Below are positions 15,977-37,993 of a stretch of DNA of 64,000 bases, one piece after another. The stretch is from an uncultured Actinomycetes bacterium (lineage in GTDB: Bacteria > Actinomycetota > Acidimicrobiia > IMCC26256 > DASPTH01), in the NCBI GenBank assembly GCA_963725775.1, contig CAVRZT010000001.1:1036209-1100208 (forward strand), given 5' to 3'. The notes beneath the pieces were generated by a model. That model was not told the origin of the DNA. It made no database searches and worked only from the letters and a program-made list of their open reading frames with translations. The stretch's first letter is position 1. The number at the start of each line of letters is the position of its first letter. A program made the position numbers and the translations under genes.

Positions 15977-16008
15977 CCCCGCCGCCGACCGACAACTGGG
16001 AGACAACC

Positions 16009-17296
16009 ATGGTGATGCAGTTCGAGAAGCCCGCGGCCGGCAGCTGGACGGAGGCGTATCCCGGATCTCGGTACGGGGTTGATCTCCTACGAGGATTCGA
16101 TCTCACCCGAGTTCTACGAGCTCGAGCGGGAGGCGATCTTCCGCCGCACGTGGTTGAACATCGGGCGGGTGGAGCAGGTCCCGAAGAAGGGCGAGCTACT
16201 TCACCAAGGAGCTCGCGGTCTGCGACACGTCGATCGTCGTGGTGCGGGGCCAGGACGACACGATCCGCGCGTTCCACAACATGTGTCGCCACCGCGGCAA
16301 CAAGTTGGTGTGGCAGGACTACCCGAACGAGGAAGTCGCCGGCACGTGTCGCCAGTTCACGTGCAAGTACCACGGGTGGCGGTACGCGCTCGACGGCGAG
16401 CTCACGTTCATCCAGCAGGAGCAGGAGTTCTTCGACCTCGACAAGAGCGACTTCCCGCTGGTGGAGGTCAACCTCGACATCTGGGAGGGGTTCATCTTCG
16501 TGAACCTCGACAAGGAACCGGCCGCGAGACGCTCGCAGGAGTTCCTCGGCGAGCTGGGCGAGAAGCTCGAGGGCTACCCGTTCTCCGAGCTCACGCAGGT
16601 GTTCAGCTACTCGGCGGAGGTCGGCAGCAACTGGAAGCTGTTCATCGACGCCTTCCAGGAGTTCTACCACGCACCGGTGTCTGCACGTGAAGCAGTCGCT
16701 GCCGCGAGGTCGCGGTGCCGATGATGGAAGCCGGCTTCGAGGCCATCCACTACTCGATCCACGGCGATCACCGCGTGGTGTCGACCGCCGGCGGCCGCAT
16801 GGACGCGCGGAGGTCCGCCGGAGTTCGTGAAGCCGATCGACATCGCTGTTCCGCAGTGGCCTGTTCGGCCCGTGGGACCGCGCCGAGAACGAGCGCGGTC
16901 TCCTCTCGCCGGGCATGAACCCGTCGCAGCCACCCGGCGTGGGGTCTCGACTCGTTCCAGTTCTTCCCGAACTTCGTGATCCTGGTCTGGGAGCCGGGCT
17001 GGTACCTCACGTACCACTACTGGCCGACGTCGGTGAACTCGCACATCTTCGAGGGTCGCCTCTACTTCCGGCCGCCGAAGAACGCGAGCGAGCGCCTGGC
17101 GCAGGAGCTCGCGGCGGTGACGTTCAAGGAGTTCGCGTTGCAGGACGGCAACACGCTCGAGGCGACGCAGACGATGCTGCAGTCACGCGTCATCACCGAG
17201 TTCCCGCTCTGCGACCAGGAGGTGCTGTGCCGGCACCTCCACAAGGTCGCGCACGACTACGTCGACGCCTACGGCGGCGTCGGGAAGGACAAGTGA
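16009..17296 (+). CDS. Rieske oxygenase alpha subunit (copy 2; several frameshifts)
   Basis: CRHRGNKLVW, CKYHGW, DAFQEFYHAP, FPNFVILVW, QDGNTLE; highly similar to copy 1. Confidence 0.88.
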
Positions 17297-17627
17297 TGAC
17301 GATGCTGCCCGAGCGAGTTCTCCGACCTCGAGCCGTTCGCGGCCCGGTGGTCCCTGCCGACCGAGAAGCGAACGCTACGCGGAGCGTCTGTCGAGCTCGA
17401 TGGAGGACATGCAGGCGTTCTACGACGCCACCTTCCCGCGCACCGAGGCGGCGAAGACGTATCTCGACACCTTCCCGCTCGACGCCCTGCCGGAGGACGC
17501 GACCAACCTGTTGCACCTGCTCTACTCCTTCATCTCGGTGTCGTTCGCGGTCGAGGTCTGGAAGCAGCCGAACGTGCCCGACTCGGGTGCCGCGTACCTC
17601 GACCTCGTCGGGGAGCCCACGCCATGA
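17296..17627 (+). CDS. Conserved hypothetical protein (paralog of 8772..9098; frameshifts)
   Basis: MEDMQAFYDATFPR...SFAVEVWKQPNVPDSGAAYLD; TGATG overlap with the Rieske gene. Confidence 0.78.
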
Positions 17628-18901
17628 CCGCGACGATGGTGGCCGGATCCCGGCCGAAGCCGCCCGACCACCCGGTCGTCCTGAAGGCCGACCGGATGGT
17701 CGACGTCGACGCGCGCACGATCGTCGAGCCGGGCGTCGTGGTCGTGGAGCGCGAGCACATCCGCGACGTGTCGCCCGAGCGGATCCCCGACGACGCCGAG
17801 GTGATCGAGCTCGGTGACCTGACCCTGCTGCCCGGGCTCATGGACATGGAGCTCAACTTCCTCATGGGCGGCGCCGGCGGCACGATGATGAGCTCGGTGT
17901 CGGACGATCCCGCGCTGAAGCTCATGCGGGCGATCCCGAGCGTCCGCAAGACGCTGCTGGCCGGGTTCACGACGGTGCGCAACCTCGGCCTGTTCGTGCA
18001 GACCGGCGGTCTGCTCCTCGACGTCACGCTCATGAAGGCGGTCGACGCCGGTTGGATTCCCGGGCCGCGCATCTTCCCTTCGGGGCACGCGATCACGCCG
18101 AGCGGTGGTCACCTCGATCCGACCATGTTCCAGGGGTTCGCACCGGGGGTGCTGCCGTTGACGGTCGAAGAGGGGATCGCCGACGGCGTCAGCCAGGTGC
18201 GTCGCGCGGTGCGCTACCAGATCAAGTACGGCGCCACGCAGATCAAGGTGTGCGCGTCGGGCGGCGTCATGTCGCTCACCGGTACGGCGGGCGCGCAGCA
18301 CTACTCCGACGAGGAGCTGCGGGCGATCGTCGACGAAGCCCACCGACGCGGCATGAGGGTGGCCGCGCACGCGCACGGCGACCAGGGGATCAAGGCCGCG
18401 ATCGAGGCCGGGATCGACTGCATCGAGCACGCCTCGCTCATGAGCGAGGAGACGCAGAAGCTCGCGCTCGAGCGCGGCACGTTCATCGTGCCCACGTCGT
18501 ACCTCTCCGAGGGCATGGACGTGTCGAACGCGGCACCCGAGCTGCAGGCCAAGGCGGCGGAGGTCTTCCCGATCGCGAAGAAGACGATCGCGCGGCTGAT
18601 CGACGCGGGAGCGAAGATCGCCACGGGTACCGACGCGCCGGCGATCCCGCACGGGCAGAACTGGAAGGAGCTGTGGGCGTTGGTGCAGCGCGGCATGCGG
18701 CCGGTCGACGCGATCGTGGCGTCGACGGTGGTCAGCGCGGAGCTCGTGCAGCGCGAAGGCGACCTCGGTCGCCTGGTGCCGGGCTTCCTCGCCGACGTCA
18801 TCGCGGTGCCCGGCGACCCCACCGAGGACATCACCGTCACCGAGGACGTGCAGTTCGTGATGAAGGGTGGCGTGGTCTACAAGATGCCCGTCACCGTCTG
18901 A
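17624..18901 (+). CDS. Metal-dependent amidohydrolase (prolidase-like subgroup)
   Basis: TLLPGLMD, AGFTTVR, IKVCASGGV, VAAHAHG, CIEH, GTDAP, ADVIAV.GDP; intact ORF. Confidence 0.9.
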   Translation: MTATMVAGSRPKPPDHPVVLKADRMVDVDARTIVEPGVVVVEREHIRDVSPERIPDDAEVIELGDLTLLPGLMDMELNFLMGGAGGTMMSSVSDDPALKLMRAIPSVRKTLLAGFTTVRNLGLFVQTGGLLLDVTLMKAVDAGWIPGPRIFPSGHAITPSGGHLDPTMFQGFAPGVLPLTVEEGIADGVSQVRRAVRYQIKYGATQIKVCASGGVMSLTGTAGAQHYSDEELRAIVDEAHRRGMRVAAHAHGDQGIKAAIEAGIDCIEHASLMSEETQKLALERGTFIVPTSYLSEGMDVSNAAPELQAKAAEVFPIAKKTIARLIDAGAKIATGTDAPAIPHGQNWKELWALVQRGMRPVDAIVASTVVSAELVQREGDLGRLVPGFLADVIAVPGDPTEDITVTEDVQFVMKGGVVYKMPVTV

Positions 18902-20050
18902 TGGATTTCGACCTCTCCGAGGAACACGAAGCCTTCCGCAAGGTCGTCCGCGACTTCGCGGAGCAGGAGATCGCACCGCACGCCGAGCGCGTGGGACCGC
19001 GATCACGTGTTCCCCGTCGAGGTCGTGCAGGCGATGGGCGAGCTCGGCCTGTTCGGCCTGCCGTTCCCGCTGGAGTACGGCGGGTCGGGGGCCGACTTCA
19101 CCACGTTGTGCGTCGCCATCGAGGAGGTGGCGCGCGTCGACTCGTCGATGGCGATCACGCTCGAGGCGGCGGTCGGGCTCGGCGCCGCGCCGATCGCGGC
19201 GTACGGCACCGAGGAGCAACGCCAGCAGTGGTTGCCCGACCTGTGCGCGGGGCGGGCGCTGGCCGGGTTCGGTCTCACCGAGCCCGACGCCGGAAGCGAC
19301 GCCGGCGCCAGCCGCACGCGCGCGCGCGCAGGACGGCGACGAGTGGGTGCTCGACGGCACCAAGGCGTTCATCACCAACTCGGGCACGCCCATCACCTCG
19401 CTGGTGACGGTCACCGCGCGCACGGGGTCGGCACGCGAGATCACCGCGATCATCGTCCCGACCGGCACGCCGGGGTTCACCGTGGAACCGGCGTACCGGA
19501 AGATGGGATGGCACGCCTCCGACACCCACCCGCTCACGCTTCGCCGACTGCCGGGTGCCGCTCACGAACACGCTCGGCACCGAGGGCGACGGCTTCCGTC
19601 AGTTCCTCGCCACCCTCGACGACGGCCGCATCGCCATCGCCGCGCTGGCGGTCGGGCATGGCCCAGGCGTGCCTGGAACAGAGCGTCGCGTACGCGGGGG
19701 AGCGCATGGCGTTCGGTGCGCCGATCGGCGCCAACCAGGGCGTGGCGTTCCGGTGCGCCGATCTCGCGGTGATGGTCGAGAACGCCCGGTTGCTCACCTA
19801 CAAGGCGGCGTGGCTGAAGGACGTCGGGCGTCCGTTCAAGCAGGCGGCGGCGATGGCGAAGCTCTACGCGACGGAAGCCGCGGTCGACGCCACGCGCCAC
19901 GCCACGCAGATCTTCGGCGGCGCCGGGTTCATCGACGAGACGCCGGTCAGCCGCTTCTACCGCGACGCGAAGATCCTGGAGATCGGTGAGGGAACCAGCG
20001 AGATCCAGCGGCTGGTCATCGGTCGCGAGCTGGGGCTGCCCGTCCGGTGA
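18901..20050 (+). CDS. Acyl-CoA dehydrogenase, FadE19-like (frameshifts)
   Basis: GLFGLPFP..YGG, AITLEAAVGLGA, FGLTEPDAGSD, YRDAKILEIGEGTSEIQR. Confidence 0.88.
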
Positions 20051-21029
20051 CGAGCTCGGCGACGCGGCCGCGCGACGATCCCGAGCTGCTCGCCGAAGGT
20101 GTTCGCCGCGGCGAGCGGGCGTTCGGTGGCGCGCATGCTGACGTTGGTGGAATCCGGCGACGAGGCGGCCCGCCCGGCGATCGCGTCGTTGGCCGCCGAC
20201 GGCGGACGCGCGTACACCGTCGGTGTCACCGGAGCGCCCGGTGCGGGGAAGTCGTCGCTCACCGATCAGCTCGTGCGGGTCCTCCGCGCGCAGGGCGATC
20301 CGGTGGCCGTCCTCGCGGTCGATCCGTCGAGCCCCCGTACCGGCGGGGCCATCCTCGGTGACCGGGTGCGCATGGGCGCGCACGCCACCGACCCGGATGT
20401 CTTCATCCGCTCGATGGCGACGCGCGGCCAGCTCGGGGGTCTCGCCGCGGCCGCGCCCCAGGCGATTCGGGTGCTCGATGCCAGCGGCACGCCGTGGGTC
20501 CTCGTCGAGACGGTCGGGGTCGGCCAGGTGGAGCTCGACATCGCCGGCGCGACCGACACCACCGTGGTCGTCGTCACCCCGGGCTGGGGCGACGGCGTGC
20601 AGGCCAACAAGGCCGGCCTCCTCGAGGTCGCCGACGTGTTCGTGGTGAACAAGGCCGATCGCGCCGGCGCCGACGCCGCGGTGAAGGACCTCGTCTCGAT
20701 GCTCGAGTTCTCGGCGACGGAATCGTGGCGCCCGCCGATCATCGAGACGGTCGCCACGACCGGTCAGGGCATCGACGCGTTGTGGGATGCGGTGTCGGCG
20801 CACCGCGCGCACCTGATGGAGACGGGTCTCCTCGAACGTCGTCGTCGTGAACGTCTGCACCACGAGATCCGCGAGATGGTGAAGGCGCACCTCCTGCAGC
20901 TCGCCGATGCGTGCTGTCAGGGGCCGCGGTTCGACAGCGATCGTCGAAGAGCACACCCAGGGCGCGTTCGATCCGCAGCGCGTCGCGGAACTGGTGGTCG
21001 GAGCGGAGCTCGGAGGAGTGCAGCAATGA
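20047..21029 (+). CDS. meaB: Mutase-associated GTPase MeaB/ArgK (frameshifts at both ends)
   Basis: GVTGAPGAGKSS, AVDPSSPRTGGAILGDRVRM, FIRSMATRG, ETVGVGQ, NKAD. Confidence 0.93.
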
Positions 21030-22079
21030 GTCGCGACCACGGGTTCCATCCGCTGCGCGGTCGACGCGCATCGTGCAGGAGACCCACGACACGAAGTCGT
21101 TCGTGTTCGACGTACCCGCCGAGCTGCAGGAGGCCTTCGCCTACGAGGCGGGCCAGTTCTGCACCTTCCGCGTCCCCTTCGGCGACGAAGACCTGATGCG
21201 CTGCTACTCGATGTCGAGCTCGCCGCACACCGACACCGAGTTCGTCACCACGGTGAAGCGCGTGCCCGGCGGGCGGGTCTCCAACTGGATGCTCGACGAG
21301 GTCGCGGAGGGCGACGTGCTCGCCCTCACCCGACCGGCCGGGGTCTTCACGCTGGTACCGCGCAGCACGCCGATCGTCGCGTTCTCCGGCGGCAGCGGGA
21401 TCACGCCGGTGATCTCGGTGATCAAGAGCGCGCTGGCGACCACCGAGCGGTCCGGTGCGGCTGCTCTACGCCAACCGCGACGTCGAGTCGGTCATCTTCC
21501 GGGCCGAGCTCGACGCGCTGAGCGTCGCGCATCCCGACCGGTTCGAGGTGGTGCACCACCTCGACACCGAGCACGGCTTCGTCCACTCGAACGGCGTGGC
21601 GGAGTTCGTGGGCACCGACCTCGACGCCGACTTCTACATCTGCGGACCGGGCCCGTTCATGGACGTGGTCGAGGACGCGCTGGCGCAGGTCGCGGTGCCG
21701 TCGGAGCAGGTGTTCATCGAGCGGTTCGCCTTCGCGGCGCCGCGGCGCGGCTCGACGAACCCCCGGCGCACCCCCGCGACCGCGACGGCGGTGGAGGCGG
21801 GCACCGAGACGGTCGTCATCGTGCTCGACGGGAAGGAGCACTCGGTGCACTACCAGCCCGGGGAGACGTTCCTCGAGACCGCTCGTCGCGCCGGGCTGCG
21901 CGCGCCGTTCTCGTGCGAGGCCGGGAGCTGCGCGACGTGCATGGCGTTCTTGCGCGAGGGCACGGCGACGATGCGCGTCAACAACGCGTTGACGCCCGAA
22001 GAGGTCGACGGAGGGCTGGGTGCTCACGTGCCAGGGCTTCCCGGCGTCACCGGCGGTGACCGTCGTGTACGAGTCGTGA
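21026..22079 (+). CDS. Ferredoxin-NAD(P)H reductase with C-terminal [2Fe-2S], KshB/PaaE-like (frameshifts)
   Basis: RCYSMSS, GGSGITP, YICGPGPFM, CEAGSCATC...LTCQ. Confidence 0.9.
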
Positions 22080-22140
22080 CCGTCGCGTCGCGCGTCGACA
22101 CCGCGTCGATAACCTGGATCGAACATGGGAGACGGAGCAG

Positions 22141-22878
22141 ATGGCCGAGCCCGAGGTTGCGGAGACCACCGCCGTGCGTGCCGGAACCGTGAACCATCCG
22201 AGCCTCAAGGACACCGCCGCGGCGTACCTGCGCGAGCAGATCCTCACCGGCAAGCTCACGCCGGGCACCAAGATCGACCAGGACGAGATCAGCGAGGCGC
22301 TCGGGCATGAGCCGCCTGCCCGTGCGCGAGGCGCTCATCGAGCTCGCGCAGGAGAGCCTGATCGACGCGGTGCCCCGACGCGGCGCGTTCGTCGCCCGCT
22401 TGGAACGGGCCGACATCATCGACCACTACCGGATCTTCGGACTCATCGCCGGGCTCGCGGCCAGCCGCGCCGCGACGTCGCTGACCGACGAGCAGCTCGT
22501 GCAGCTGCGCGCCGTCCACGAGGCGTTCGTCGCGGCGACCGATCCCGACGACAAGGCGAACTGGAACCACGAGTTCCACAAGATGATCAACCAGGCCGGC
22601 GGTTCGCGTCGCCTGGTCTCGGTGCTCGGCGCTGCTGTCGCGCAGCCTGCCGGTGCGCTACTTCGAGTTCGTGCCCGACTGGGCCGAGATCTCGGCGAGC
22701 CACCACGCCCGAATCCTGAGCGCGCTCGAGGCGCACGACGCGCACGAGGCGCAGCGCATGCATGGAGCACCACCTGGCCGAGAGCGGCGACCTCGCGGTC
22801 GAGATCCTCCAGGAGATGGGGTACTGGGACCGATTGCCCGGCGAGCGGACGGAAGCGAGCGAGTCCGGCGCGGCGTAG
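22141..22878 (+). CDS. GntR/FCD-family regulator (frameshifts)
   Basis: LREQILTGKLTPG...SRLPVREAL; FCD motifs NHEFH and HHARIL. Confidence 0.85.
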
Positions 22879-22882
22879 TCAC

Positions 22883-24064
22883 GTGGCGCCGCTCGACGGC
22901 ATCCGGGTCCTGGAGCTCTGTCACTTCCTCGCCGGCCCGTACGCGGGCCTGGTCCTGGCCGACCTCGGCGCCGACGTGCTGAAGGTCGAGGACCCTTCCC
23001 ATCCCGACGACGCCCGCTCGATGGGGCCGCACTTCCAGGGCGACCAGTCGCTGTACTTCCTCGCGCTGAACAGCGGGAAGCGGTCGATCGGCGTGCGCCT
23101 GGCGACGCCCGAGGGCCGCGCGGTCGTCGAGGATCTCGTGCGCGACGCCGACGTGGTCATCGACAACTACCGGCCCGGCGTGCTGGCGAAGTTCGGCCTG
23201 GATCACGACGCGCTGCACGTGGTGAACCCGGCCGTGGTCACGTGCTCGTTGACCGGCTACGGCGAGACCGGTCCCGACGCGACCCGGGCCGGCTACGACT
23301 ACACCATCCAGGCCCTCGCCGGGGTCATGAGCCTCGCCGGTGAGCCCGACGGACCGCCGACCAAGGCGGGCATCTCGTACGTCGACCACAGCGGGGGCAT
23401 CACCGCCGCGCTCGGCGTGTGCGCGGCGCTGGTCGAGCGGGCGCGCACCGGCGTCGGTTCGCACGTCGACCTCGCGCTCTTCGACGTGCAGATCTCCATG
23501 CTCACGTACCTCGCGTCGTGGCAACGGAACCGCGGCGCCGCGTTCGCGCGCACCGCGAACTCTGCGCACCCGACGCTCGTGCCCGCGCAGAACTTCCGAA
23601 CCGCCGACGGTCACCTCGCGCTCTTCATCGGCAACGACGGCATGTGGCAGCGGTTCGTCGACGTGTTGGGCGACCCGCCGTTGGCCGACGAGCGGTTCGC
23701 CACCCGCGAGGGCCGGTTGGAGCACCGGGAGGAGGTCCTCGCCCACGTCCAGCGGGTGTTCCTCACCGGTACCGGCCGCGAGTGGGAGCAACGGCTGGGC
23801 GCCGCGGGCGTCGCGTGCGGCACGGTCAACGACGTCGCCGACGCGCTCGAGGAGCCCCAGACCCGGGCGCGGGGCCTCCTGGTGCAGAACGAGCACCCGG
23901 CGTACGGGCGCTACGAACACCTTCGTGGGCCACTGCCCACACGCGGGCGCGAAACCCTGCGCCCCGCACCGCTCCTCGGCGAGCACACGACCGAAGCGCT
24001 CACCGGCATCGGGTACCCGGAGGCACGCGTCGAGGAGCTGCGCGCCGCGGGGATCGTCGTCTGA
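22883..24064 (+). CDS. CaiB/BaiF family III CoA transferase
   Basis: PLDGIRVLEL, AGPYAG..LADLGADV, NSGKRS, DNYRPG, GYDYTIQA. Confidence 0.93.
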   Translation: MAPLDGIRVLELCHFLAGPYAGLVLADLGADVLKVEDPSHPDDARSMGPHFQGDQSLYFLALNSGKRSIGVRLATPEGRAVVEDLVRDADVVIDNYRPGVLAKFGLDHDALHVVNPAVVTCSLTGYGETGPDATRAGYDYTIQALAGVMSLAGEPDGPPTKAGISYVDHSGGITAALGVCAALVERARTGVGSHVDLALFDVQISMLTYLASWQRNRGAAFARTANSAHPTLVPAQNFRTADGHLALFIGNDGMWQRFVDVLGDPPLADERFATREGRLEHREEVLAHVQRVFLTGTGREWEQRLGAAGVACGTVNDVADALEEPQTRARGLLVQNEHPAYGRYEHLRGPLPTRGRETLRPAPLLGEHTTEALTGIGYPEARVEELRAAGIVV

Positions 24065-24070
24065 CCGGAG

Positions 24071-24857
24071 TCAGCCCTCGTCGCGCGCGGCGCGTCGACG
24101 CTGCGCCGCCTCGTCGACCATCTGCCAGTGCTCGTCGGCGACCCACGTGCGCGCGAACGAGGCGATGGCGCCGTCGGCGAGGTCGGGGCGAGCGGTCGGG
24201 AACGCGGCACGCTGCGCGGCCTTGATGCCCACCAGAGCGTCCCGCGGGGCTCGCGCGATCTGCTCGGCGAGCTCGCGCCAGTGGCGCTCGAACTGCTCGC
24301 GTGGGACGACGTCGTCGAAGAGACCCTGCTCGAGCGCCTCGGGGGCGCCGAGGATCCGACCGGTGGTCATGAGCGCGAGCGCGCGTCCACGGCCCACCAA
24401 CGCGGTGAGGCGCTCGATGCCACCCCACGCCGGCATGATGCCCAGCGTCACCTGGTTGAACCCGCAGCGGACGTCGTCGGCCGCGACGCGGATGTCGCAG
24501 GCGACGGCCACTTCGGCGCCGCCGCCGTAGGCGTCGCCGTTCACCGCCGCGACCACGGGTATCGGCAGCGTGGCCATCCGGTCGAGGACCGTCCGCATGG
24601 TCACGGCCATCGCCGCGGCGTCATCGAGGGTGCGGATCGCCGCGAGCTCCTTGAGGTCACCGCCGGCGACGAAGACCCGGCTCCCGGCACCGGTGACCAC
24701 CAGCACGCGCGCCGGTGAGCCGGTCGACCTCGTCGAGGGCGTCGGCGAGCTCGCGCATGGTCGCCCGGGCGATGGAATTGCGGGCCTCGGGCCGGTCGAT
24801 GGTGAGCACCGTGACTGCGCCGTCGTGGTCGAGACGCACGTCGCCGCCACTGACCAT
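24071..24857 (-). CDS. Enoyl-CoA hydratase/isomerase (frameshift near 24720)
   Basis: TIDRPEARNSI, FVAGGDL, AVNGDAYGGGAEVAVACD, GIMPAWGG. Confidence 0.87.
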
Positions 24858-24941
24858 TCGGGAAAGATTATCAGATCTGCCGAATGCGGCTCCGGGGGTC
24901 GCCTGCTCTCGCAGCCCGAAGATGACAGCATGCGGCGCTCC

Positions 24942-24954
24942 AATATACGATATT
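24942..24954. promoter_or_regulatory. Inverted repeat over the -10 box of the mutase gene; candidate GntR operator
   Basis: AATAT-ACG-ATATT overlaps TACGAT, which lies 6 nt before ATG 24958. Confidence 0.45.
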
Positions 24955-24957
24955 TCG

Positions 24958-26554
24958 ATGGGAGCGGAGGGGGAGCTCACGACCGAAGCCGGTCTCGTCG
25001 TCGAGCGCAGCTACGGCCCCGACGATGTCGACGGCGACCTCGCGCGGCATCGGCAACCCCGGCGAATTCCCGTTCACGCGCGGCAACCATCCCGGTGGCT
25101 ACCGCGACAAGCTCTGGACGTTCCGCCAGTACTCCGGCTTCGGCACGCCCGAATGGTCGAACGAGCGCTACAAGCTCCTGCTGAAGGAGGGCGGCACCGG
25201 GCTCTCGGTGGCGGCCGATCTCCCGACCCAGATCGGGTACGACTCCGACGACCCCGAGGTCGAGGAAGAGGTCGGCCGGGTCGGGGTCGCGCTCGACTCT
25301 CTCGCCGACGCCGAGATCCTCTTCCGCGACATCCCACTCGACCAGATCTCGACGTCGTGGACGGTCAACGGCACCGCGGCGATCATGCTCGCCTTCTACG
25401 TCGCGGTCGGCGGCAAGCAGGGCGTGGCGCGTTCGAAGCTGCGCGGCACGGTGCAGAACGACATCCTCAAGGAGTACGTGGCGCGCGGCACGTGGATCTG
25501 GCCGCCGACACCGTCGATCCGGTTGATCGCCGACTCGATCGAGTTCTGCGCCGACGAGGTGCCCCGGTACAACGCGGTCTCGGTCGCGGGTGCGCACTTC
25601 CGCGACGCGGGTGCGAACGCCGCGCAGGAGATGGCGTTCACGCTGCAGGACGCGGTCACCTACTGCGACGAGATCGTCGGTCGCGGCCGGATGACGATCG
25701 ACCAGTTCGCGCCGCAGGTGTCCTTCTTCTTCTACACCCACAACGACTTCTTCGAGGAGGTCGCGAAGTACCGGGCCGGCCGCCGTCGCTGGGCGCACAT
25801 CGTCCGCGATCGCTACGGCGCGCAGGAGGCGAGCTCGTCGATGTTCCGCACCGGCGTGGTGTGCGGCGGCTGGACGCTGCAGGCGCAGCAGCCGCACAAC
25901 AACATCGTGCGGGTCGCCTACCAGGCCATGGCCGCAGTGCTCGGCGGCGTGCAGTCGATGTTCACTGCCGCGTGGGACGAGCCGTTCGCGCTTGCCCACC
26001 GAGGAGAGCACGACGCTCGCGCTGCGGACGCAGCAGATCCTCGCCCACGAGACGGGCGTCACCCGCACCGTCGATCCGCTCGGCGGGTCGTACTTCGTCG
26101 AGTCGCTCACCGACGCGATGGAGGAGAAGATCGTCGGGATCATGGCCGAGCTCGAAGCGCGCGGCGGCATGGTCCAGTGCATCGAGGACGGGTACGTGCA
26201 ACGGTTGATCGCCGACGAGTCGGCCGCGGTGCAGCGCAAGATCGACAGCGGTGAGCGCGTGATCGTCGGCGTGAACCGCTACGAGAGCGACCAGCCGGCG
26301 CCGGAGCTGGCGCCGCCCGAGATGGACGAAGCCGGCGCGCAAGGTGCAGCTCGACCGCCTGGCCGAGGTCCGGCGCACCCGCAACACGCCGGGCCGCGCT
26401 CGCCGCACTGGCCGAGCTGCGCGCCGCCGCACTGGGCGACGCCAACCTCATGCCCCACCTGGTCGAGTGCGTCGAGGAGTACTGCACGGTCGGCGAGATC
26501 ACGAAGGAGCTCAAGGACGTGTGGGGCGAGTACCAGCAGCCGACGGTGTTCTGA
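24958..26554 (+). CDS. B12-dependent acyl-CoA mutase large subunit, divergent MCM-like (frameshifts near 25040, 25990, 26340-26400)
   Basis: PGEFPFTRG, WTFRQYSGF, DLPTQIGYDSD, QNDILKEYVARGT, ALRTQQILAHETG, DPLGGSY. Confidence 0.93.
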
Positions 26555-26616
26555 TGGAGATGCAGCGGAGGCGTGGCCGGAGGCCGGGATGCCGTAGCGG
26601 AATCGACCAGGCGTGA
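26554..26616 (+). other. 20-codon bridging mini-ORF (MIRU-like translational coupler)
   Basis: TGATG overlap with the mutase stop and TGATG overlap with the B12-subunit start; encodes [20 protein letters not shown]. Confidence 0.55.
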
Positions 26617-27017
26617 TGACCGCTCCGGTGCGGGTCCTGGTCGCGAAGCCGGGCCTCGACGGTCACGACCGCGGCGCCAAGCTCGTGGCGCGGGCGTTGC
26701 GCGACTCCGGCTTCGAGGTCATCTACACCGGCATCCGGCAGAAGCCGGAGGCGATCGCGTCGATCGCCCTGCAGGAAGACGTCGACCTGGTCGGTCTCTC
26801 GATCCTCTCCGGTGCGCACATCGGGCTCACCCGCAAGACGGTCGAGGCGTTGCGGGCGTCGGGCGTCGGCGACATCAAGGTCGTGGTCGGCGGGACGGTG
26901 CCGCAGGCCGACGTGCAACCGCTGCTCGACCTCGGCGTCGCCGCGGTGTTCCCGACCGGCACTCCGATCGAGACGCTGGTCGCCGAGGTCCGTAAGCTCA
27001 CGGGCGCGGTCGGCTGA
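26616..27017 (+). CDS. Cobalamin-binding small subunit of the mutase
   Basis: [10 protein letters not shown] (DxHxxG), SILSGAH, VGG. Confidence 0.95.
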
Positions 27018-27046
27018 CCGATCGGATCCGGGACCAAGGAGCACAG

Positions 27047-27807
27047 ATGACGTTTGCAGGTTCCACCGCGATCGTGACCGGTGGCGCGTCGGGCATCGGG
27101 CTCGCGATCAGCGAACGGCTGGCCCGCGACGGCGCCAAGGTGTCGGTGTTCGACCTCGACGTCGAGCAGGCCAGACGGGCCGCGCAGGGCATCCGCGACG
27201 AGGGCGGTGAGGCCATCGCGTGCGAGGTCGACGTGTCGGACCGCGCGCAGGTCGACGCCGCGATCGAGCAGACGCGTCGCCACCCTCGGCCCGGTGCTCG
27301 TGCTGGTCAACAACGCGGGCAAGGACGGCTTCGACCCGTTCATGGACATCAGCACCGAGCTGTGGGAGCGCATCATCGCGGTGAACCTCACCGGCACGTT
27401 CCACTGCACGCAGTCGGCGTTGCCCGACATGCTCGAGGCCGAAGTGGGGCCGCATCGTCAACATCTCGTCGTCGAGCGCGCAGACCGGCGCGGTGCGGAT
27501 GGCGCACTACTCGTCGTCCAAGGGCGGCATGATCGCCCTGACGAAGTCGTTGGCGCTCGAGCTCGGACCGCACGGCATCACCGTCAACACCATCCCGCCC
27601 GGATCCATCGACACCCCGATGAGCCGCCGCTCCGCCGACGAAGGCCGATTCGGGGGCGGCACGCTCGACGACGTCGCCCGCCACCTCCCGGTGCGTCGCA
27701 TCGGCGTCCCCGAGGACATCGCGGCGGCGTGCGCGTACCTCGTGTCCGACGAAGCCGGCTACGTCACCGGACAGATCATCGGCGTCAACGGCGGCCGGGT
27801 CACCTGA
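27047..27807 (+). CDS. Short-chain dehydrogenase/reductase (frameshifts)
   Basis: [26 protein letters not shown]. Confidence 0.9.
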
Positions 27808-27831
27808 CCTCTCGATCGAGGAGCGAACGAC

Positions 27832-28270
27832 ATGGACCAGCAAGAGATGGCCGACCTGCTCGAGATCCAGCAGCTGGCGGCGCGCTACATGATGTTGTCG
27901 GCGCGGAAGGACAACGACCACTGGCTCGACGTGTTCACGCCCGACGGCGTGTACAACGCGTTCGGCACCCCGTACGGACTCGACGCCTTCCCGATGCTCC
28001 TGAAGAGCGCGCCGCCCGGCCAGTACATCGGCAACGCGCCGCTGGTCGAGTTCGACGGCGACACCGCGACCGGGGTGCAGCACTACGTCTTCGTCGACCA
28101 GACCACCCACGACATGCGCCTCGCCTGGTACGACGACGAGTACGTGCGCACCGCCGACGGCTGGCGCATCCGCTCGCGCTCGACCACGTTCATGCGCCGC
28201 AACGGCTCGTTCGACCACGGCAAGGCGCACGACCCGGCGCGCTTCGTCGCCGGTCAAGAGATCGACGTAG
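27832..28270 (+). CDS. SnoaL/NTF2-like protein (3' end uncertain)
   Basis: LEIQQLAARY...YDDEYVRTADGWRIRSR. Confidence 0.8.
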
Positions 28271-28279
28271 GCGTCGAGC

Positions 28280-29239
28280 ATGCGCATCGGCATCATGGTC
28301 GGGCCCGAGACCCGCGACTACGCGGCGCAAGGTCGACCGACTGGTCGACGACGCCAAGGCGGCCGACGACGCGGGCTTCGCGACCGCGTGGATCCCGCAG
28401 CTCCCGCAGGACTTCGACGCGATGACCGCGGTCGCGCTCATGGGGCGCGAGACGAGCCGCATCGAGCTCGGCACCGCGGTCGTCCCGCTGCAGTCGCGCC
28501 ATCCGATCGCGCTCGGCCAACAGGCGCTGTCGGTGCAGGCGGTGTGCGGCGGTCGGTTCAGCCTCGGCGTCGGGCCGTCGCACCACTGGATCGTCGACAA
28601 CATGCTGGGGTTGCCCTACGAGCAGCCGGCGAAGGTGGTCGAGGACTACCTCGACGTGTTCGACGCGATGTTCGTCGGGTCCGAGCCCGGTCGACGTCGA
28701 GAACGACCGCTTCCGCATCCACAACCCGCTCGACATCACCGACCTCGCGGTCCCCGTGCTGCTCGCGGCACTCGGTCCGGTGATGCTGCGGATCGCCGGC
28801 GAGCGGGCCGACGGCACGGTGCTGTGGATGGCCGACGAGCGCGCGATCGCCGAGCACGTCGTGCCGCGGATCACGAAGGCGGCCGAGGCGCGCGGGCCGA
28901 CCCGCGCCGCGCGTCGTCGCCGGCGTGCCGGTGGGCCTGTGTGCGGCCGACCAGGTGGACGCGGCGCGATCGAGCGGGCGAACCGCATCCTCGGTCACGC
29001 GGAGTACTCGCCCGAACTACCAGCGGCTGCTCGAGCAGGGCGACGCCGCCGACGTCGGCGACATGGCGGCGCTGGGCACCGAAGCCGACATCGAGCGCCG
29101 GCTGCGCTCGTACGCCGACGCCGGCACCACCGACTTCTCGGTCCGCGTCCTGCCGCTGGGCAACGGGCGCGACGAGATCGTCGCCTCGTCCCGCCGCACG
29201 CGCGAGTTCCTGGCGTCGCTCGCGCCCGAGTTCACGTGA
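28280..29239 (+). CDS. LLM-class, probably F420-dependent oxidoreductase (frameshifts)
   Basis: TSRIELGTAVVP..RHP, LGVGPSH, AALGPVMLRIAGERADG. Confidence 0.85.
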
Positions 29240-30903
29240 GCGTGACCCGTGAGGGGCGACCAGCTCTGGCGCGTCGCTTCCCGCGATGGCGGCCGACGCC
29301 GGCGCGCGCTTCGGTGACGCCGACGCGGTGGTCGACGGCGATCGCCGGGTGAGCTTCGCGGAGCTCGATCGCCGACGCCCGGCGCGTCACCGCCGCGCTG
29401 GTGGCGTCGGGGATCGAGCCCGGGGAGCGCGCCGCGATCTGGTCGCCGAACCGCTACGAGTGGCTGGTCGCCGCGCTGGGCACGCTCGGCGCCGGTGCCG
29501 CGGTCGTGCCGGTGAACACCCGCTTCAAGGGCGAAGAGGTGCGGTACATCCTCGAGCGCAGTGGCGCGCGCGTCGTGTTCACGGTCGGGGAGTTCCTCGG
29601 CATGGACTACGCCGCGCACCGTCGCCGACCTGCGCCCCGACCTCCCGAACCTCGCGCTCGTCGTCGGGTTCGACGACGCCGTCGGCGGCCGACCACTCGC
29701 TCGACGCGTTCTGTCGCGTTGGGTGACGCGGTCGACGCCGACGACCGTCGATGCACGCTGGGCCGCGGTCGGCGGCCGACGACGTGTGCGACGTGCTGTT
29801 CACGTCGGGCACGACCGGTGCGCCGAAGGGCGTGCTCATGACGCACGCGCAGACGCTCCGGCAGTTCTCCGACTGGTGCGACATGGCCGGACTGCAGACC
29901 GGCGACAAGTACCTGATCGTCAACCCGTTCTTCCACATGTTCGGGTACAAGGCCGGGTGCCTGGCGTCGCTCATGCAGGGCGCGACGATCATCCCGAAGG
30001 CCGGTCCTCGACGTCGACGACCTGCTGCGCACGGTCGCCGCGGAGTCGGTGACCGTGCTGCCCGGTCCGCCCACGCTCTACCAGTCGATCCTCGACCATC
30101 CCGACCGCGACGGGTTCGACCTGTCGTCGTTGCGGGTCGCGGTCACCGGCGCGGCCGACATCCCGGTCGACCTGATCCGCCGCTTGCACGAGGAGCTGCC
30201 GTTCTCCACCATCATCACCGGCTACGGGCTGACCGAAGGCGGCACGGTCACGGGCACCGGACCCGACGACGACTTCGAGACCATCGCGACCACGGTCGGT
30301 CGCGCCCGTCCCGGGCTCGAGATCCGCATCGCCGACGACGACGGGAACGCACTGCCGGTCGGCGAGCCGGGCGAGGTGCTCGTGCGCGGCTACAGCGTGA
30401 TGCGCGGCTACCTCGACGACCCGGCCGAGACCGCACGCGCCATCGACACCGAGGGTTGGCTGCACACCGGCGACCTCGGCACGCTCGACGAGCGCGGCTG
30501 CCTGCGCATCGTCGGGCGCAAGAAGGACATGTTCATCGTCGGCGGCTTCAACGCCTACCCGGCCGAGATCGAGAACCTGCTGCTCGGCCACCCCGCGGTC
30601 GGCCGGGTCGCGGTGGTCGGGATGCCCGACGAGCGCCTCGGTGAGGTCGGCATGGCCTTCGTCGTGCCCGCACCCGGCGCCGAGGTCGATCCGGACGAGC
30701 TCATCGAGTGGGCACGCGGCACGATGGCCAACTACAAGGTGCCCCGCGCAGTCGAGATCGTCGACGAGCTGCCGGTGAACGCCGCCGGCAAGGTCGAGAA
30801 GGAAACGCTGCGCGCCCGTGCCGCCTCGTTCCCGGGTCGATCCCGTTCCGCCGTCCCACGCTCCGCGCACGGCTCCACTCCATCTCCGAAGCGGAAGGGA
30901 TAG
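29236..30903 (+). CDS. Acyl-CoA synthetase, FadD3-like (frameshifts in the 5' half)
   Basis: FTSGTTGAPKG, NPFFHMFGYKAG, GYGLTE, LHTGDLG, GGFNAYPAEIE. Confidence 0.88.
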
Positions 30904-30906
30904 CTC

Positions 30907-31948
30907 GTGGACACCCGCTACTCGCCGGAGCAGCTCGAGCTGCGACGCAGCGCCGCCGTCGCTGGTCGACGACCTCGGACCGCGCACGGTCGACGACCTC
31001 GACGACGCGGTGCGGCGCGGCGCGGCTCGCCGACGCCGCGGACTGCGTCGGGGTGGTTCGAGCTCCGCGGGCCGGGTGACGACGACGGCCCGCTGGCGTC
31101 CGGCGTCGAGGTGGCGCTCGTGGCGCGGCGAGCTCGGTCGTGCCGCTGCCGACACGCCCTTCTTCGGGCCGGTGGTCGCCGCCGACCTGGCGCGTCAGGC
31201 CGGACTCGAGCTCGAGGACGCGCGTGCCAGCGTCGTGCTCGACGGCGCGTTGCTCGACGTCGCCGTCGTGCCGCCGACGGGTACGGCCGACGGGCGTCGC
31301 GGTCGACTGCGCGGGTGCGGAACGCGGCCTGGTGCTGCTCGGCGAGGGTGGTGGCGCACACCTGGCCGAGGTCGGCCATCGGCGACGCCGGCTCCGGCGA
31401 CCGACCTGACCCGCGCCCTCGCGCCGGTGACGCTCGCGGCGTCGTCGACGACCGCACTCGACGGCGCGATGCTCGATGACGACGCGCTCGAGCGGTGCCG
31501 GGCGCTCGGCGTCGCGATCACCGTCGCCGATCTCGTGGGCACGATGGAAGGCGCGATCGACACCACGTGCGAGTACGCGAAGGAGCGACAGCAGTACGGC
31601 GTGGCCATCGGATCGTTCCAGGCGGTGCAGCACCTGTTGGCCGAGGCGCGGGTGCTGCTCGAAGGATCGATCAGCGTGTCGCAGTACGCGGCGTGGGCGG
31701 TCGACGCGCTGCCACCGGCCGAGGCGAGCGACGCCGGATCGGTGGCCAAGGCGTACTGCGCCCGGGCGGCGCGCATCGTGTGCGAGACCGCCATCCAGGT
31801 GCACGGCGGTATCGGGAACACGTGGGAGTGCTTCGTGCACGTGTACCTGCGCCGGGCGCTGCTCTCGAGCTCGCTGCTCGGCGACGAGGGACACCACCTG
31901 CGGGCGCTGGCCCGCCATCGAGTGGGAGACGAACGTGGACTTCGGTGA
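30907..31948 (+). CDS. Acyl-CoA dehydrogenase, degenerate beta-type subunit (frameshifts)
   Basis: RQQYGVAIGSFQAVQH, QVHGGIGNTWE; overlaps the following ACAD gene. Confidence 0.82.
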
Positions 31949-33068
31949 CTCGCCCGAGGAAGCCGCCTTCCGCGCGCGCATCCGCGCCTGGCTGACGGAC
32001 AACAACCCCGGCCTCCCCGCGTCGTCGACCGACGACGAGTACTGGGCCCGGCAGGCCGAATGGCACTGCGCGCTGTTCGACGCGGGGTTCTTCGCGCTCA
32101 CGTGGCCGAAGCGCATCGGCGGTCACGAGCTGCCGCCCGTCTACGAGGTCATCGTCGACGAGGAGCTCGCCGCGGCCGGCGCGCCGCCCAAGCCGAGCCT
32201 CGGCTACCTGATCCAGGGCATCACCCGACACGGCAGCGACGAGATCTGCGACCGGTTCCTCCCCGCGCTCATCAGTGGGCGCGACCGCTGGTGCCAGGGG
32301 TTCAGCGAGCCCGATGCGGGCTCCGACCTCGCGTCGTTGCGCACGCGCGCGGTGCTCGACGGCGACGAGTACGTCGTCGACGGGCACAAGATCTGGACCA
32401 GCTACTCCGACGTCGCCGACTGGTGCATGCTGCTGGCGCGCACCGATCCCGGCGCACCGAAGCACAAGGGCATCTCGGCGTTCGCGGTGCCGATGCACCA
32501 GCCGGGAATCGAGCAGCGGCCGCTCAAGATGATCAACGGGGTCACGAGCGAGTTCGGCCAGGTGCTGTTCGACGGCGTGCGGGTACCGGCGGCGAACATG
32601 ATCGGCGAGCCGGGGGAGGGCTGGGCGCTGGCGATGACGGTGGTGAGCCACGAGCGCGAGCCGACGGAGCTCGGCTACGTGGCGCGCTACAGCAAGTTGG
32701 TGAACCAGCTCGAGGCGACCGTGCGCGCGCAGCCCGATCGGTACCGACCCGACCAGATCGCCGCGCTCGGTCGTGCGTACGTCGAGTCGGAGATGTTGCG
32801 CTTGCACGTGGGCCGGCGGCTCTCCGAACGCCTCGACGGAGTGAAGCACGGGCCCGACGGCTCCATCGACAAGCTGCTGATGACCGCGGTCGAACAGGCC
32901 GTCGGGCACGCCGCGTTGGCCGTCGGCGAGCCGACGCCGGTGCTCGACGCCGACGACACCTGGCTGAAGGTGTACCTCTACAGCCGCGCGCAGAGCGTGA
33001 TGGGCGGGACCTCACAGATCCAGAAGAACATCATCGCGACGCGGATCCTCGGCCTGCCGACGTCCTGA
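31935..33068 (+). CDS. Acyl-CoA dehydrogenase alpha subunit
   Basis: [38 protein letters not shown]. Confidence 0.92.
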
Positions 33069-33087
33069 GCGGTGGCGCGGTGAGAAC

Positions 33088-33323
33088 TCAGTCGCGGCGG
33101 TAGTCGTCGCGTTGCGACCCGTCGAAAGTTGCCTCCGCGCATACAACACCGCTTGAAGCGTCGCCCAGACCCGTATGGGCATGGATCGTTCCGACCGAGG
33201 CGCTCGATCAGCTCCTTGCCGTGACCGACCGCGCGGTCGCCGCGCTTGACCCGCGACTCGCTACGGGTACCCCCTGCGACGCTTGCTCATGGGCTCGAAC
33301 GGTGCTTGCTCTTCGTGTCCCAC
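33088..33323 (-). pseudogene. Small SEC-C motif protein, disrupted
   Basis: Hand translation after AGGAGG RBS: [77 protein letters not shown]; two +1 shifts. Confidence 0.7.
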
Positions 33324-36484: not shown

Positions 36485-37993
36485 TCACGTGTCAGAAAGG
36501 TCGGCGAGCCAGTCTTCCTTGAGCGTGCGACGCAGCGCCTTGCCCGACGGGAGGCGGGGGATCTCGTCGACCATGACGACGTGACGGATCCGCTTGTACC
36601 CCGCGAGCTGCTCGGCGACCGCGGCTTGGAGCTCTTCGGCCGTGACGACCGCGTCGGGTACGACGACGACCGCGGCGACCACCGCTTCTCCGAGCTCGGC
36701 GTCGTCGACCCCGAAGACCGCGCAGTCGCGCACGCGTGGGTCGGCGTGTAGGACGGCCTCGATCTCCGCAGGCGCGACCTGGAAGCCGCGCACCTTGATC
36801 ATCTCCTTGAGCCGGTCGGTGATGTGCAGCCAGCCCTCCGGCTCCATCCAGCCGATGTCGCCGGTGCGGTACCAGCCGTCGTGGAACGCCGCCGCGGTCT
36901 CGGCATCGGGGAGGTAGCCGGCCATGGCCGACGCGCTCCACACCTCGATCTCTCCGGTCGCGCCGGCGTCGAGCACGGCGCCGGTCTCGGGGTCGGCGAT
37001 GCGGATGCGCACGCCGGGCGCGGGCAGCCCGGCGCTGTCGAGGCGCCACCGGTCGGGGCTGTCCTGCACGGGGTTGGCCGCGATGACCGGGACCTCACTC
37101 GTGCCGTACGCGGGCAGCCACCGCACTCCGGTACGGCGGGTGACGGTGCGCGCCACCTCTTCGGCCACGGGCGTCGCCCCCCACATGATGTAGCGCAGCG
37201 AGCTCAGGTCGAAGTCTTCGAGCCGCGGGTGATTGGCCATGCCCAGCGCGATCGGCGCCACCGCCATCTCGAGCGTCATGCGTTCCTGCTCGATGGCGCG
37301 CAGCGACGCGTCGAGGTCGAAGCGCGGGTGGAGACGGATCCGCGCACCCGCGGCCACCGCGGTCACGATGTTGAGCAACCCGAGGATGTGCACCGGCGGG
37401 GTGGCGACCTGAAAGCGGTCGCGGTCGGTGAGCCCGAGCGACGCGATCCAGTGTTCCACCGCGTGTCCCATCGTGCGGTGCGTGTGGCGCACCGCCTTGG
37501 GGAAGCCGGTCGTGCCCGAGCTGAACACGAGCACCGCGTCCGCGTCGGGATCGTCGATGATGTGCGCGGGATCGAGCGTGGCCGTCGGCCGCGCCTCGTC
37601 GAACTCCAGCACCGGCGCCGACGGGAGCGCATCGGTCAACGCGCGGCACCCGGCGGCGTCGCCCATCGCGGCCTGTGGCGCCACGATCCCGCAGGCGTGC
37701 TCCACCTCGGCGGCCTTCCACGCCGGGCTGAACATCACGATCGACGCGCCCAGCTGCAGCACGCCGTACGCGGCGAACACGAACTCGGGCCGGTTGTTCG
37801 ACATCAACGCGACGCGCGTACCTCGCGTGACGCCGGCGGCCGCCAACGACGCGCTCCACTCGTCGGCGTGGGTCTGCACGTTGTCGAACGTGTACTCGCG
37901 GTCCTCGAAGTCGAGCGCCACGCGTTCGTGATCGCTCGCCACCCGGTTCCGCAACACCTCGGGCAGCGTGCGCCCCTCCCGCTGGCCGCTCAC
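36485..37993 (-). CDS. AMP-binding acyl-CoA synthetase
   Basis: FSSGTTGFPK, YGTSE, YRTGD, GFQVAPAEIE, PRLPSGK. Confidence 0.92.
   Translation of the reverse strand: MSGQREGRTLPEVLRNRVASDHERVALDFEDREYTFDNVQTHADEWSASLAAAGVTRGTRVALMSNNRPEFVFAAYGVLQLGASIVMFSPAWKAAEVEHACGIVAPQAAMGDAAGCRALTDALPSAPVLEFDEARPTATLDPAHIIDDPDADAVLVFSSGTTGFPKAVRHTHRTMGHAVEHWIASLGLTDRDRFQVATPPVHILGLLNIVTAVAAGARIRLHPRFDLDASLRAIEQERMTLEMAVAPIALGMANHPRLEDFDLSSLRYIMWGATPVAEEVARTVTRRTGVRWLPAYGTSEVPVIAANPVQDSPDRWRLDSAGLPAPGVRIRIADPETGAVLDAGATGEIEVWSASAMAGYLPDAETAAAFHDGWYRTGDIGWMEPEGWLHITDRLKEMIKVRGFQVAPAEIEAVLHADPRVRDCAVFGVDDAELGEAVVAAVVVVPDAVVTAEELQAAVAEQLAGYKRIRHVVMVDEIPRLPSGKALRRTLKEDWLADLSDT

Follow-up and report, generated by a model that had tools for sequence, protein, structure and literature searches.

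To our knowledge, about half a dozen specificities have been demonstrated by assay among the B12-dependent acyl-CoA mutases, and each new one opened a pathway or a biocatalytic route. In Aromatoleum aromaticum, IaaGH is described as a (2-aminophenyl)succinyl-CoA/(2-aminobenzyl)malonyl-CoA mutase, and its operon also encodes the family-III CoA-transferase IaaL, the acyl-CoA dehydrogenase IaaF and the CoA ligase IaaB (PMC8360864). ActD and MatB-MatQ from actinonin and matlystatin biosynthesis, respectively, are proposed to convert hexylmalonyl-CoA into 2-pentylsuccinyl-CoA (PMC5719088). Here, we compare with these and other mutases a locus within a 64,000-nt stretch of DNA from an uncultured actinomycete, termed “the window”, whose positions are counted from its first letter and whose genome is denoted G000. 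Positions 24958-27017 probably encode a working two-subunit adenosylcobalamin (AdoCbl)-dependent acyl-CoA mutase of a distinct, uncharacterised class, whose predicted substrate is not methylmalonyl-CoA but another CoA ester of the substituted malonyl or succinyl type.

The clade formed by this enzyme and its close relatives is a concrete candidate for another specificity: it is sharply bounded, under purifying selection and embedded in a conserved operon with a chaperone and an F420-type partner. It also occurs in cultivable Mycolicibacterium, Nocardia and Rhodococcus. The altered pocket as such will hardly surprise specialists; many other representatives of the family vary their pocket, too.

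Subunits and Active-Site Signature

Since three-frame translation and family scans yield a mutase large subunit followed by a separate B12-binding subunit of 134 aa, the region 24958-27017 holds two genes, namely that of the large subunit (24958-26554), which starts with ATG at 24958 and ends with TGA at 26552-26554, and that of the small subunit (26613-27017). No single open reading frame spans the region, and its 2060 bases are not divisible by three; the G+C content of the window is approximately 70%. The large subunit matches PF01642 in two frame pieces (424.9 and 140.2 bits) and TIGR00641 with 443.7 bits (cut-off 303.8). The intact orthologue P0001 (531 aa) from the related genome G009 aligns to the window in five collinear tblastn pieces of 81-97% identity. 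The small subunit carries the DxHxxG motif as DGHDRG at residues 16-21. Such a partnership of large and small subunits is textbook knowledge. Together, the barrel domain, the DxHxxG B12 domain, the equivalents of Tyr89, His244 and Glu370, which we take to be the catalytic residues, and a nearby MeaB gene place the pair in the AdoCbl acyl-CoA mutase family, and homology predicts a B12-dependent 1,2-rearrangement.

Pocket residues were read, for aligned residues only, from pairwise HMMER alignments to human methylmalonyl-CoA mutase (MCM; 2xij), P. shermanii MCM (1req) and 2-hydroxyisobutyryl-CoA mutase (HCM; 4r3u), and are numbered as in P. shermanii MCM, counted along the 1req_A alignment (chain index + 1). 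Frame 2 of 24716-27020 reads RQYSGF, SVAAD, TSWT, EYVARG, AGAHFRD, RTGVVCGG and SMFTAAWDEP; the gap-free counterparts in 2xij, 1req and 4r3u are RQYAGF, SVAFD, SMT, EFMVRN, SGYHMQE, R(A/T)H(C/S)QTSG and SLHTNS(F/L)DEA. The five motif changes listed in an initial annotation of the sequence (SVAAD, TSWT, AGAHFRD, RTGVVCGG and SMFTAAWDEP) all reappear in the frame 2 translation and in the alignments to the three structures. That annotation had also held that indels do not explain them, and indeed they lie within one unshifted stretch, 25049-25993, with alignments free of gaps throughout the motifs.

The equivalents of Tyr89, Gln197, Arg207, His244, Asp369 and Glu370 are retained. Among these, Tyr89 in RQYSGF and Arg207 in EYVARG presumably constitute the carboxylate-binding pair, which had correctly been reported as kept. 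The replacements comprise Phe117Ala, Met165Trp, Ser241Ala, Tyr243Ala, His328Gly, Gln330Val, Thr331Cys, Ser332Gly, His364Phe, Asn366Ala, Ser367Ala, Leu368Trp and Ala371Pro, at positions that we assume, from what is known of MCM structures, to line the substrate/adenosyl pocket. Thus, the equivalents of Tyr243, Gln330 and Asn366, singled out in the initial annotation, are Ala, Val and Ala by the 1req_A count. P0001, which is intact and 96% identical, shows the same motif changes with RFGVVCGG as the sole difference. Because this orthologue and 80 clade loci share the changes, they are, on the evidence of the alignments, neither chance nor sequence error.

As judged from the aligned residues, many pocket positions are now occupied by smaller or more hydrophobic side chains, and the pocket appears to have gained hydrophobicity and, in sum, space. 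The substrate probably bears a substituent larger or more hydrophobic than methyl, since Ala or Gly takes the place of Tyr243, His328, Asn366 and Ser241/332, and Val and Phe that of Gln330 and His364. Positions 117 and 165 covary among the 80 loci, with Leu and Phe in 67, Ala and Trp in ten (the subgroup of the window) and other pairs in three; they look like a packing pair rather than a source of extra space.

Extent and Conservation of the Clade

A scan of species-representative genomes yielded at least 598 pattern matches, 551 of which passed tblastn; the clade counts given here cover the best 80 loci. These include metagenome-assembled genomes (MAGs) of Acidimicrobiia at 84-90% identity and, at approximately 70%, Mycolicibacterium, Mycobacterium, Nocardia, Rhodococcus, Actinocorallia, Streptomyces, Williamsia, Frankiaceae and Thermoleophilia. 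RQYSGF and AGAHFRD are present at all 80 loci and VQSMFTAAWDEP at 79. The pattern FR-x-G-x-V-x-GG is found at 77 loci, which puts Gly328/Val330 at no fewer than 77, and Ala366 occurs at 79, while Ala243 and the Tyr/Arg pair are invariant (80/80). On these counts, the altered pocket is a fixed signature of a large, conserved family and not unique to the window. Three clade members at 70-73% identity (L023, L066 and L043) reside on contigs labelled as Burkholderiales or Bifidobacterium breve MAGs, and look like binning errors or transfers from Actinomycetota soil lineages.

The boundary of the clade is sharp. Among 1.84 billion 50%-identity representatives, a single one (1109 bits) stands for the whole clade; the runner-up reaches 51% identity and 549 bits, and no sequence falls between approximately 69% and 52%. 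A search of 5.8 billion proteins listed 120 clusters of 69-97% identity, which, where named at all, bear generic mutase names. The ratio of nonsynonymous to synonymous substitutions (dN/dS) is 0.067-0.116 against eight orthologues of 80-88% nucleotide identity, with the four columns of window-only bases described below set aside, and the large subunit is under strong purifying selection. Among related genomes, five harbour an orthologue of 92-96% identity and a sixth one of 79%, each with an open frame across the match. Since most genomes of the same genus have matches of at most 55% identity only, the large-subunit gene is accessory. A full-text literature search retrieved no publication on the clade or its operon, and the locus tags MSMEG_4878-4882 gave unrelated mentions only.

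Phylogenetic Placement and Paralogues

A signature table of 24 pocket columns was compiled for seven reference rows and the 122 representatives that reach 480 aa, after 27 shorter ones among 149 had been dropped. Omission of one 2974-aa row and addition of ten clade rows gave the 138 rows of a FastTree phylogeny with midpoint root and Shimodaira-Hasegawa (SH)-like local supports. The clade is monophyletic (support 100, stem 0.42) and nested among non-canonical mutases that form a radiation of 79 rows (support 98), in which its immediate sisters branch without resolved order. The comparison with MCM and isobutyryl-CoA mutase (ICM) suggested in the initial annotation bore out a separate position: the clade lies outside the canonical MCM group, which includes a MutB-type paralogue of genome G006, outside the ICM-signature group and apart from split-type sequences with the full MCM signature, where the MCM and ICM groups are defined by the residues themselves and the rows comprise no characterised sequences of ethylmalonyl-CoA mutase (ECM), IaaG, ActD/MatB or pivalyl-CoA mutase (PCM).

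The highest-scoring representative outside the clade has an ICM-type signature, which we take to be Phe and Gln in place of the Tyr/Arg pair. In 38 of the 138 rows, the Tyr/Arg pair is kept together with varied residues at positions 243, 328, 330 and 366, and P0147, a 50%-identity representative, shares Ala241-Ala243-His244 with the clade. The chemical range of the mutase family is probably much wider than assayed, as dozens of 50%-identity representatives keep Tyr/Arg, yet vary the pocket.

Genome G000 contains ten PF01642 matches, read as five mutase loci, and several MeaB genes, one of which directly follows a separate canonical MCM locus. G006 encodes one ICM-type (Phe/Gln), one canonical MCM and one fused, ECM-like paralogue, and matches at equivalent identities are present in G000. 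The fused paralogue (656 aa) is approximately 39-40% identical to the clade protein and located elsewhere in the tree; its ECM label is our assumption from a motif, and a scan with NCBIfam fired no ECM model. Like the clade it has Gly328, Trp368 and the S/A-R-G motif, but Tyr243 and Gln330 are retained. The window itself holds a second acyl-CoA mutase large subunit on the plus strand (54676-56166), in a single frame, approximately 53% identical to the first (PF01642 671 bits) and with an ICM/HCM-like signature (NDILKEYQAQKEY, SGYHIRE, STAFD).

Operon Context and Gene Content

Partner genes were counted across the 80 loci with tblastn, where hits had to show no less than 35% identity and 50% coverage and to lie no further than 10 kb away. 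A small-subunit homologue adjoins the large subunit at every one of them. The CoA-transferase accompanies the mutase at 67-68 loci (54 of the 59 with full flanks), and the luciferase-like (LLM) oxidoreductase of family TIGR03564 at 63 (51 of these 59). Acyl-CoA dehydrogenase (ACAD) subunits are found at 43-46 loci, a ligase at 44 (the FadD3-family ligase of the G009 type at 13), a hydratase at 41, a short-chain dehydrogenase/reductase (SDR) at 29, a ferredoxin reductase at 25 and a MeaB-like gene at 24. A homologue of the stand-alone acyl-CoA dehydrogenase L016:4913-6055 is confined to five loci.

G009 served as reference locus and is syntenic with the window over 14.7-33 kb at approximately 79-89% nucleotide identity (blastn). 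Its gene order runs from the Rieske oxygenase alpha subunit via an amidohydrolase, a segment matching an acyl-CoA dehydrogenase (blastn), the ferredoxin reductase and a GntR/FCD regulator to the family-III CoA-transferase, followed by an enoyl-CoA hydratase on the opposite strand, the mutase large and small subunits, the SDR, the LLM oxidoreductase, the FadD3-family ligase and two ACAD subunits. The window shows the same order plus a MeaB gene (Table 1). The segment around the latter, 20051-21026, has no blastn counterpart in the otherwise collinear G009 and constitutes an insertion/deletion difference between close relatives; G006 has a MeaB-like gene at the corresponding place (L013). The genes of Mycolicibacterium rhodesiae JS60 are arranged as IclR, mutase large and small subunits, TIGR03564 LLM oxidoreductase, CoA-transferase, ligase, ACAD small and large subunits, hydratase, SDR (opposite strand), MeaB and TetR.

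Table 1. Genes of the mutase locus and its surroundings in the window.
Feature	Position	Strand	Evidence and remarks
Rieske oxygenase alpha subunit	16031-17293	+	tblastn; G009 protein has PF00848/PF00355
Amidohydrolase	17666-18898	+	tblastn; PF01979 129.9 bits
Stand-alone acyl-CoA dehydrogenase	18901-20047	+	tblastn; counterpart L016:4913-6055 has full ACAD domain set
MeaB-type G-protein chaperone	20129-20905	+	PF03308 305/303.8 bits; = G000:C1:1056337-1057113
Ferredoxin-NAD(P) reductase, frameshifted	21067-22076	+	tblastn; G009 protein PaaE-like, 248.8 bits, under cut-off
GntR/FCD regulator, frameshifted	22177-22863	+	tblastn; G009 protein carries PF00392 and PF07729
Family-III CoA-transferase, unshifted	22883-24058	+	PF02515 400.5 bits
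Enoyl-CoA hydratase/isomerase family gene, one frame change	24110-24848	-	PF00378 140.8 bits; tblastn frames -3, -1
Acyl-CoA mutase large subunit	24958-26554	+	~530 aa without the four additional bases; frames 1>2>3>1>2
Mutase small subunit, B12-binding domain, 134 aa	26613-27017	+	TIGR00640 152.2 bits (cut-off 57.45); PF02310 94.3 bits
SDR, two frame changes	27044-27804	+	tblastn of G009 SDR
F420-dependent LLM oxidoreductase, family TIGR03564, two frame changes	28170-29236	+	tblastn of G009 orthologue
FadD3-family acyl-CoA ligase, four frame changes	29274-30822	+	tblastn of G009 orthologue
Acyl-CoA dehydrogenase subunit pair	31229-33065	+	small, beta-like, 31229-31942; large, alpha-like, 31812-33065; tblastn

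The family assignments of the frameshifted genes draw on the G009 proteins: the LLM orthologue scores 338.7 bits with TIGR03564 (cut-off 234.25), the ligase 753.6 bits with NF005801 (cut-off 657) and the SDR 209 bits with PF00106, while its BadH-like match of 244 bits stays under the cut-off of 431 bits. The large ACAD subunit is PimC-like (176.8 bits, under cut-off) and the mycobacterial small one IpdE2/PimD-like. The nearest solved relatives of the LLM oxidoreductase are F420-dependent Mer enzymes at approximately 70 bits. Those of the CoA-transferase in the window are the CaiB/BaiF protein 4ed9, formyl-CoA transferase and succinate-hydroxymethylglutarate CoA-transferase (264-278 bits), compared with 162 bits for benzylsuccinate CoA-transferase and 96 bits, over half the protein, for alpha-methylacyl-CoA racemase; by these scores it is nearest to dicarboxylate CoA-transferases, not racemases. 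Taken by its predicted gene families, the operon context is that of CoA-ester catabolism. The mycobacterial and Frankiaceae flanks gave no clue to the substrate, as they contain only generic aldehyde dehydrogenase, ligase, SDR, HIBADH-like and PcaC-like genes. Rfam, run over the whole window at gathering thresholds, returned zero matches, and therefore no B12 riboswitch was detected there. Elsewhere in the window lie a second Rieske oxygenase alpha subunit (7497-8732, plus strand), 64% identical to that of G009, as well as a ligase (36509-37942) and a hydratase (43188-43904), both on the minus strand and 58% and 52% identical to their counterparts in the mycobacterial operon, respectively.

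Frame Breaks in the Large-Subunit Gene

A DNA alignment with eight orthologous genes attributes the broken frame of the large subunit to four +1 shifts, each caused by a single base found in the window only (25046, 25992, 26332 and 26388). These bases are absent from all eight orthologues, which are open frames of 1593-1596 nt, and once they are ignored neither in-frame stops nor further lesions remain. Five related genomes likewise have intact open frames of 534-827 aa spanning the orthologous matches. Judged by the frames of tblastn pieces against the intact G009 orthologues, approximately 25 serial +1 frame changes affect nine of the 15 genes between 16000 and 33100, a distance of approximately 17 kb. 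Because the neighbouring genes are shifted likewise, the breaks are read as assembly errors and not as decay: on comparison with the orthologues, they are very probably assembly indel errors in a gene that is functional.

If the frameshifts were instead real, the gene would be a pseudogene in the source organism, a reading to which four frame breaks within 1.6 kb lend some weight. Moreover, no public run with the exact sequence of the window was found against which they could be verified; the highest share of sampled words among 21 listed runs was 0.12, a result that is uninformative on both habitat and frameshifts. Decay is nevertheless highly improbable, given that all four breaks are single inserted bases of the same +1 type seen in nine of 15 neighbouring genes, that the gene shows no lesion beyond them and a dN/dS of approximately 0.09, and that the marker-gene completeness of G000 is 66% despite a genome of 5.2 Mb in only six contigs. 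The many broken frames in G000 are a warning of assembly errors; those at 16000-33100 of the window, and probably genome-wide, resemble uncorrected single-base insertions of long-read assembly. Elsewhere in the genome, another mutase gene (G000:C2:460112-461465), adjoined by a MeaB fragment (C2:458930-459403), appears as four PF01642 pieces in differing frames, which fits the same assembly problem.

Proposed Function and Alternative Specificities

In the proposed mechanism, a CoA ester would be made by the dicarboxylate-type CoA-transferase or the ligase. The small subunit would bind B12 in the base-off/His-on mode via DxHxxG, and MeaB would load and guard the cofactor. Homolysis of the Co-C bond would yield a 5’-deoxyadenosyl radical that abstracts hydrogen from the substrate, whose free carboxylate would be held by the Tyr89/Arg207 equivalents. 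With the assistance of the His244 equivalent, the CoA-thioester carbonyl would then undergo a 1,2-migration that interconverts a 2-substituted malonyl-CoA and a substituted succinyl-CoA. The product would be processed in a beta-oxidation-like manner by the acyl-CoA dehydrogenases, the hydratase and the SDR, with the F420-type oxidoreductase as a constant operon partner. The physiological substrate is likely to lie outside the five assayed small substrates. A further-reaching proposal is tentative and somewhat doubtful as a whole: the clade may catalyse an undescribed B12 rearrangement between bulky, hydrophobic (alkyl, alicyclic or aryl) malonyl- and succinyl-CoA esters, and thereby form the centre of a catabolic module that is widespread in actinobacteria and has a dicarboxylate CoA-transferase and an F420-dependent LLM oxidoreductase as constant partners. 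In Acidimicrobiia, the dicarboxylate might arise from Rieske-oxygenase attack on, and amidohydrolase cleavage of, a nitrogen-containing precursor, an arrangement that would parallel, under aerobic conditions, the anaerobic IaaGH step. Of the interpretation given in the initial annotation, the B12-dependent acyl-CoA mutase with Tyr, Arg and His kept and an altered pocket stands, and is joined by the CoA-ester operon and a separate canonical MCM; the bulky alkyl, aryl or alicyclic substrate and the new rearrangement did not gain the same footing.

Several observations weigh against the main reading of a distinct specificity class. The P. shermanii Y243A mutant is reportedly impaired but active, and a smaller residue at position 243 alone is compatible with turnover of methylmalonyl-CoA. 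The pairs at 117/165 (Ala and Trp in ten loci, Leu and Phe in 67) are approximately volume-conserving, and the pocket is read from aligned residues, not from coordinates. Small dicarboxylates are the substrates of the nearest solved CoA-transferases, which gives no pointer to a bulky substrate, and the wider context varies, with the Rieske oxygenase and the amidohydrolase at 11 of the 80 loci each. The phylogeny offers local supports only and leaves the deep nodes near the clade without resolution, and the full-text literature search found no activity data for any clade member.

By its residues, the large subunit is a member of the acyl-CoA mutase family, yet neither an MCM proper nor an ICM or HCM: it shares the carboxylate pair with MCM, but not the pocket of Phe117, Tyr243, His328, Gln330 and Asn366, and it has Tyr, Ala and Arg at positions 89, 117 and 207, where the HCM motifs read mrqIagf, stDfd and ymaQke. 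An ordinary split-type MCM, in which the odd residues reflect neutral lineage-specific drift, would agree with the retention of Tyr89, Arg207, His244 and Gln197, with database names that know the members only as “methylmalonyl-CoA mutase” family, and with the nearby MeaB. Such an enzyme is improbable here, however, considering that nine aligned pocket positions are unlike those of all three solved MCMs, that G000 already has a canonical MCM locus, and that split-type representatives with the full MCM signature exist, but elsewhere in the tree. Nor do the replacements look like drift, since their fixation extends over 80 loci in several orders. The cut-off of the NF006944 equivalog model, which represents the fused 721-aa form, is 876 bits, far above the 383.4 and 101.7 bits obtained here. 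That the substrate is a CoA ester without a free carboxylate, as for ICM, HCM and PCM, is very improbable: the top solved match by score is indeed HCM (4r3u, 485 bits), whose split architecture, also that of ICM, recurs here, and the best-scoring representative outside the clade is of ICM type, yet the clade keeps the Tyr89/Arg207 equivalents throughout, whereas the matching residues are Ile, Asp and Gln in HCM, and Phe and Gln in the ICM-type paralogue.

It is unlikely, though worth more than a passing mention, that the clade acts in an ECM-like manner on short alkyl (ethyl or propyl) substituents, or belongs to the IaaGH type (aryl-succinyl-CoA) or the ActD/MatB type (hexylmalonyl-CoA). The presumed ECM-like paralogue of G006 shares Gly328, Trp368 and S/A-R-G with the clade, but differs in the retention of Tyr243 and Gln330, in its low identity and in its place in the tree. 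In the iaa operon, too, the mutase is accompanied by CoA-transferase (family III), acyl-CoA dehydrogenase and CoA ligase genes (PMC8360864). ActD and MatB are split-type mutases as well; according to the accessible part of their description, however, relatives are few and always found in biosynthetic clusters with a CCR (crotonyl-CoA carboxylase/reductase) and an epimerase (PMC5719088), neither of which occurs among the neighbouring proteins scanned at the clade loci.

Comparison with Known Mutase Systems

The solved MCMs (P. shermanii MutB 1req, human MMUT 2xij and M. tuberculosis 6oxc) belong to the same fold family, with E values of 1e-110 to 1e-131, and share with the clade the equivalents of Tyr89, Gln197, Arg207, His244 and Glu370, the DxHxxG B12 domain and the MeaB chaperone. 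In contrast to their fused alpha chain with a beta partner, the enzyme described here is split into 530 and 134 aa, replaces nine pocket positions, forms a separate clade and resides in a different operon. HcmAB (4r3u) is the best solved match (E 2.3e-144) and has the same large and small subunit architecture; the intact orthologue can be aligned end to end to it as well as to MCM structures. It differs by Ile, Asp and Gln in place of Tyr89, Ala117 and Arg207, and it keeps Tyr-His, His-x-Gln and His-Thr-Asn, where the clade protein has Ala-His, Gly-x-Val and Phe-Thr-Ala.

Ecm/MeaA resembles the predicted enzyme in that it is a dicarboxylyl-CoA mutase whose substrate carries a substituent exceeding methyl in size, and the G006 paralogue that we assume to be ECM-like shares Gly328, Trp368 and S-R-G. 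In that paralogue, the differences are the fused chain of 656 aa and the retained Tyr243 and Gln330.

With IaaGH, which acts on a succinyl/malonyl-CoA with a bulky aryl substituent and is compared by gene roles only, the clade loci have the partner types CoA-transferase, acyl-CoA dehydrogenase and ligase in common, while the host of the former is an anaerobic betaproteobacterium and the accessible part of the account mentions no F420-dependent LLM partner for iaa (PMC8360864). The iaa operon thereby appears to offer the closest described logic, in the sense of a likeness of context rather than proof of membership. ActD/MatB, compared by the available description only, provide another split-type actinomycete mutase; they belong to secondary-metabolite clusters with CCR and epimerase and have few close orthologues (PMC5719088). 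In contrast, the clade of the window occupies catabolic-looking operons and extends over at least 551 genome stretches that passed the check for relatives.

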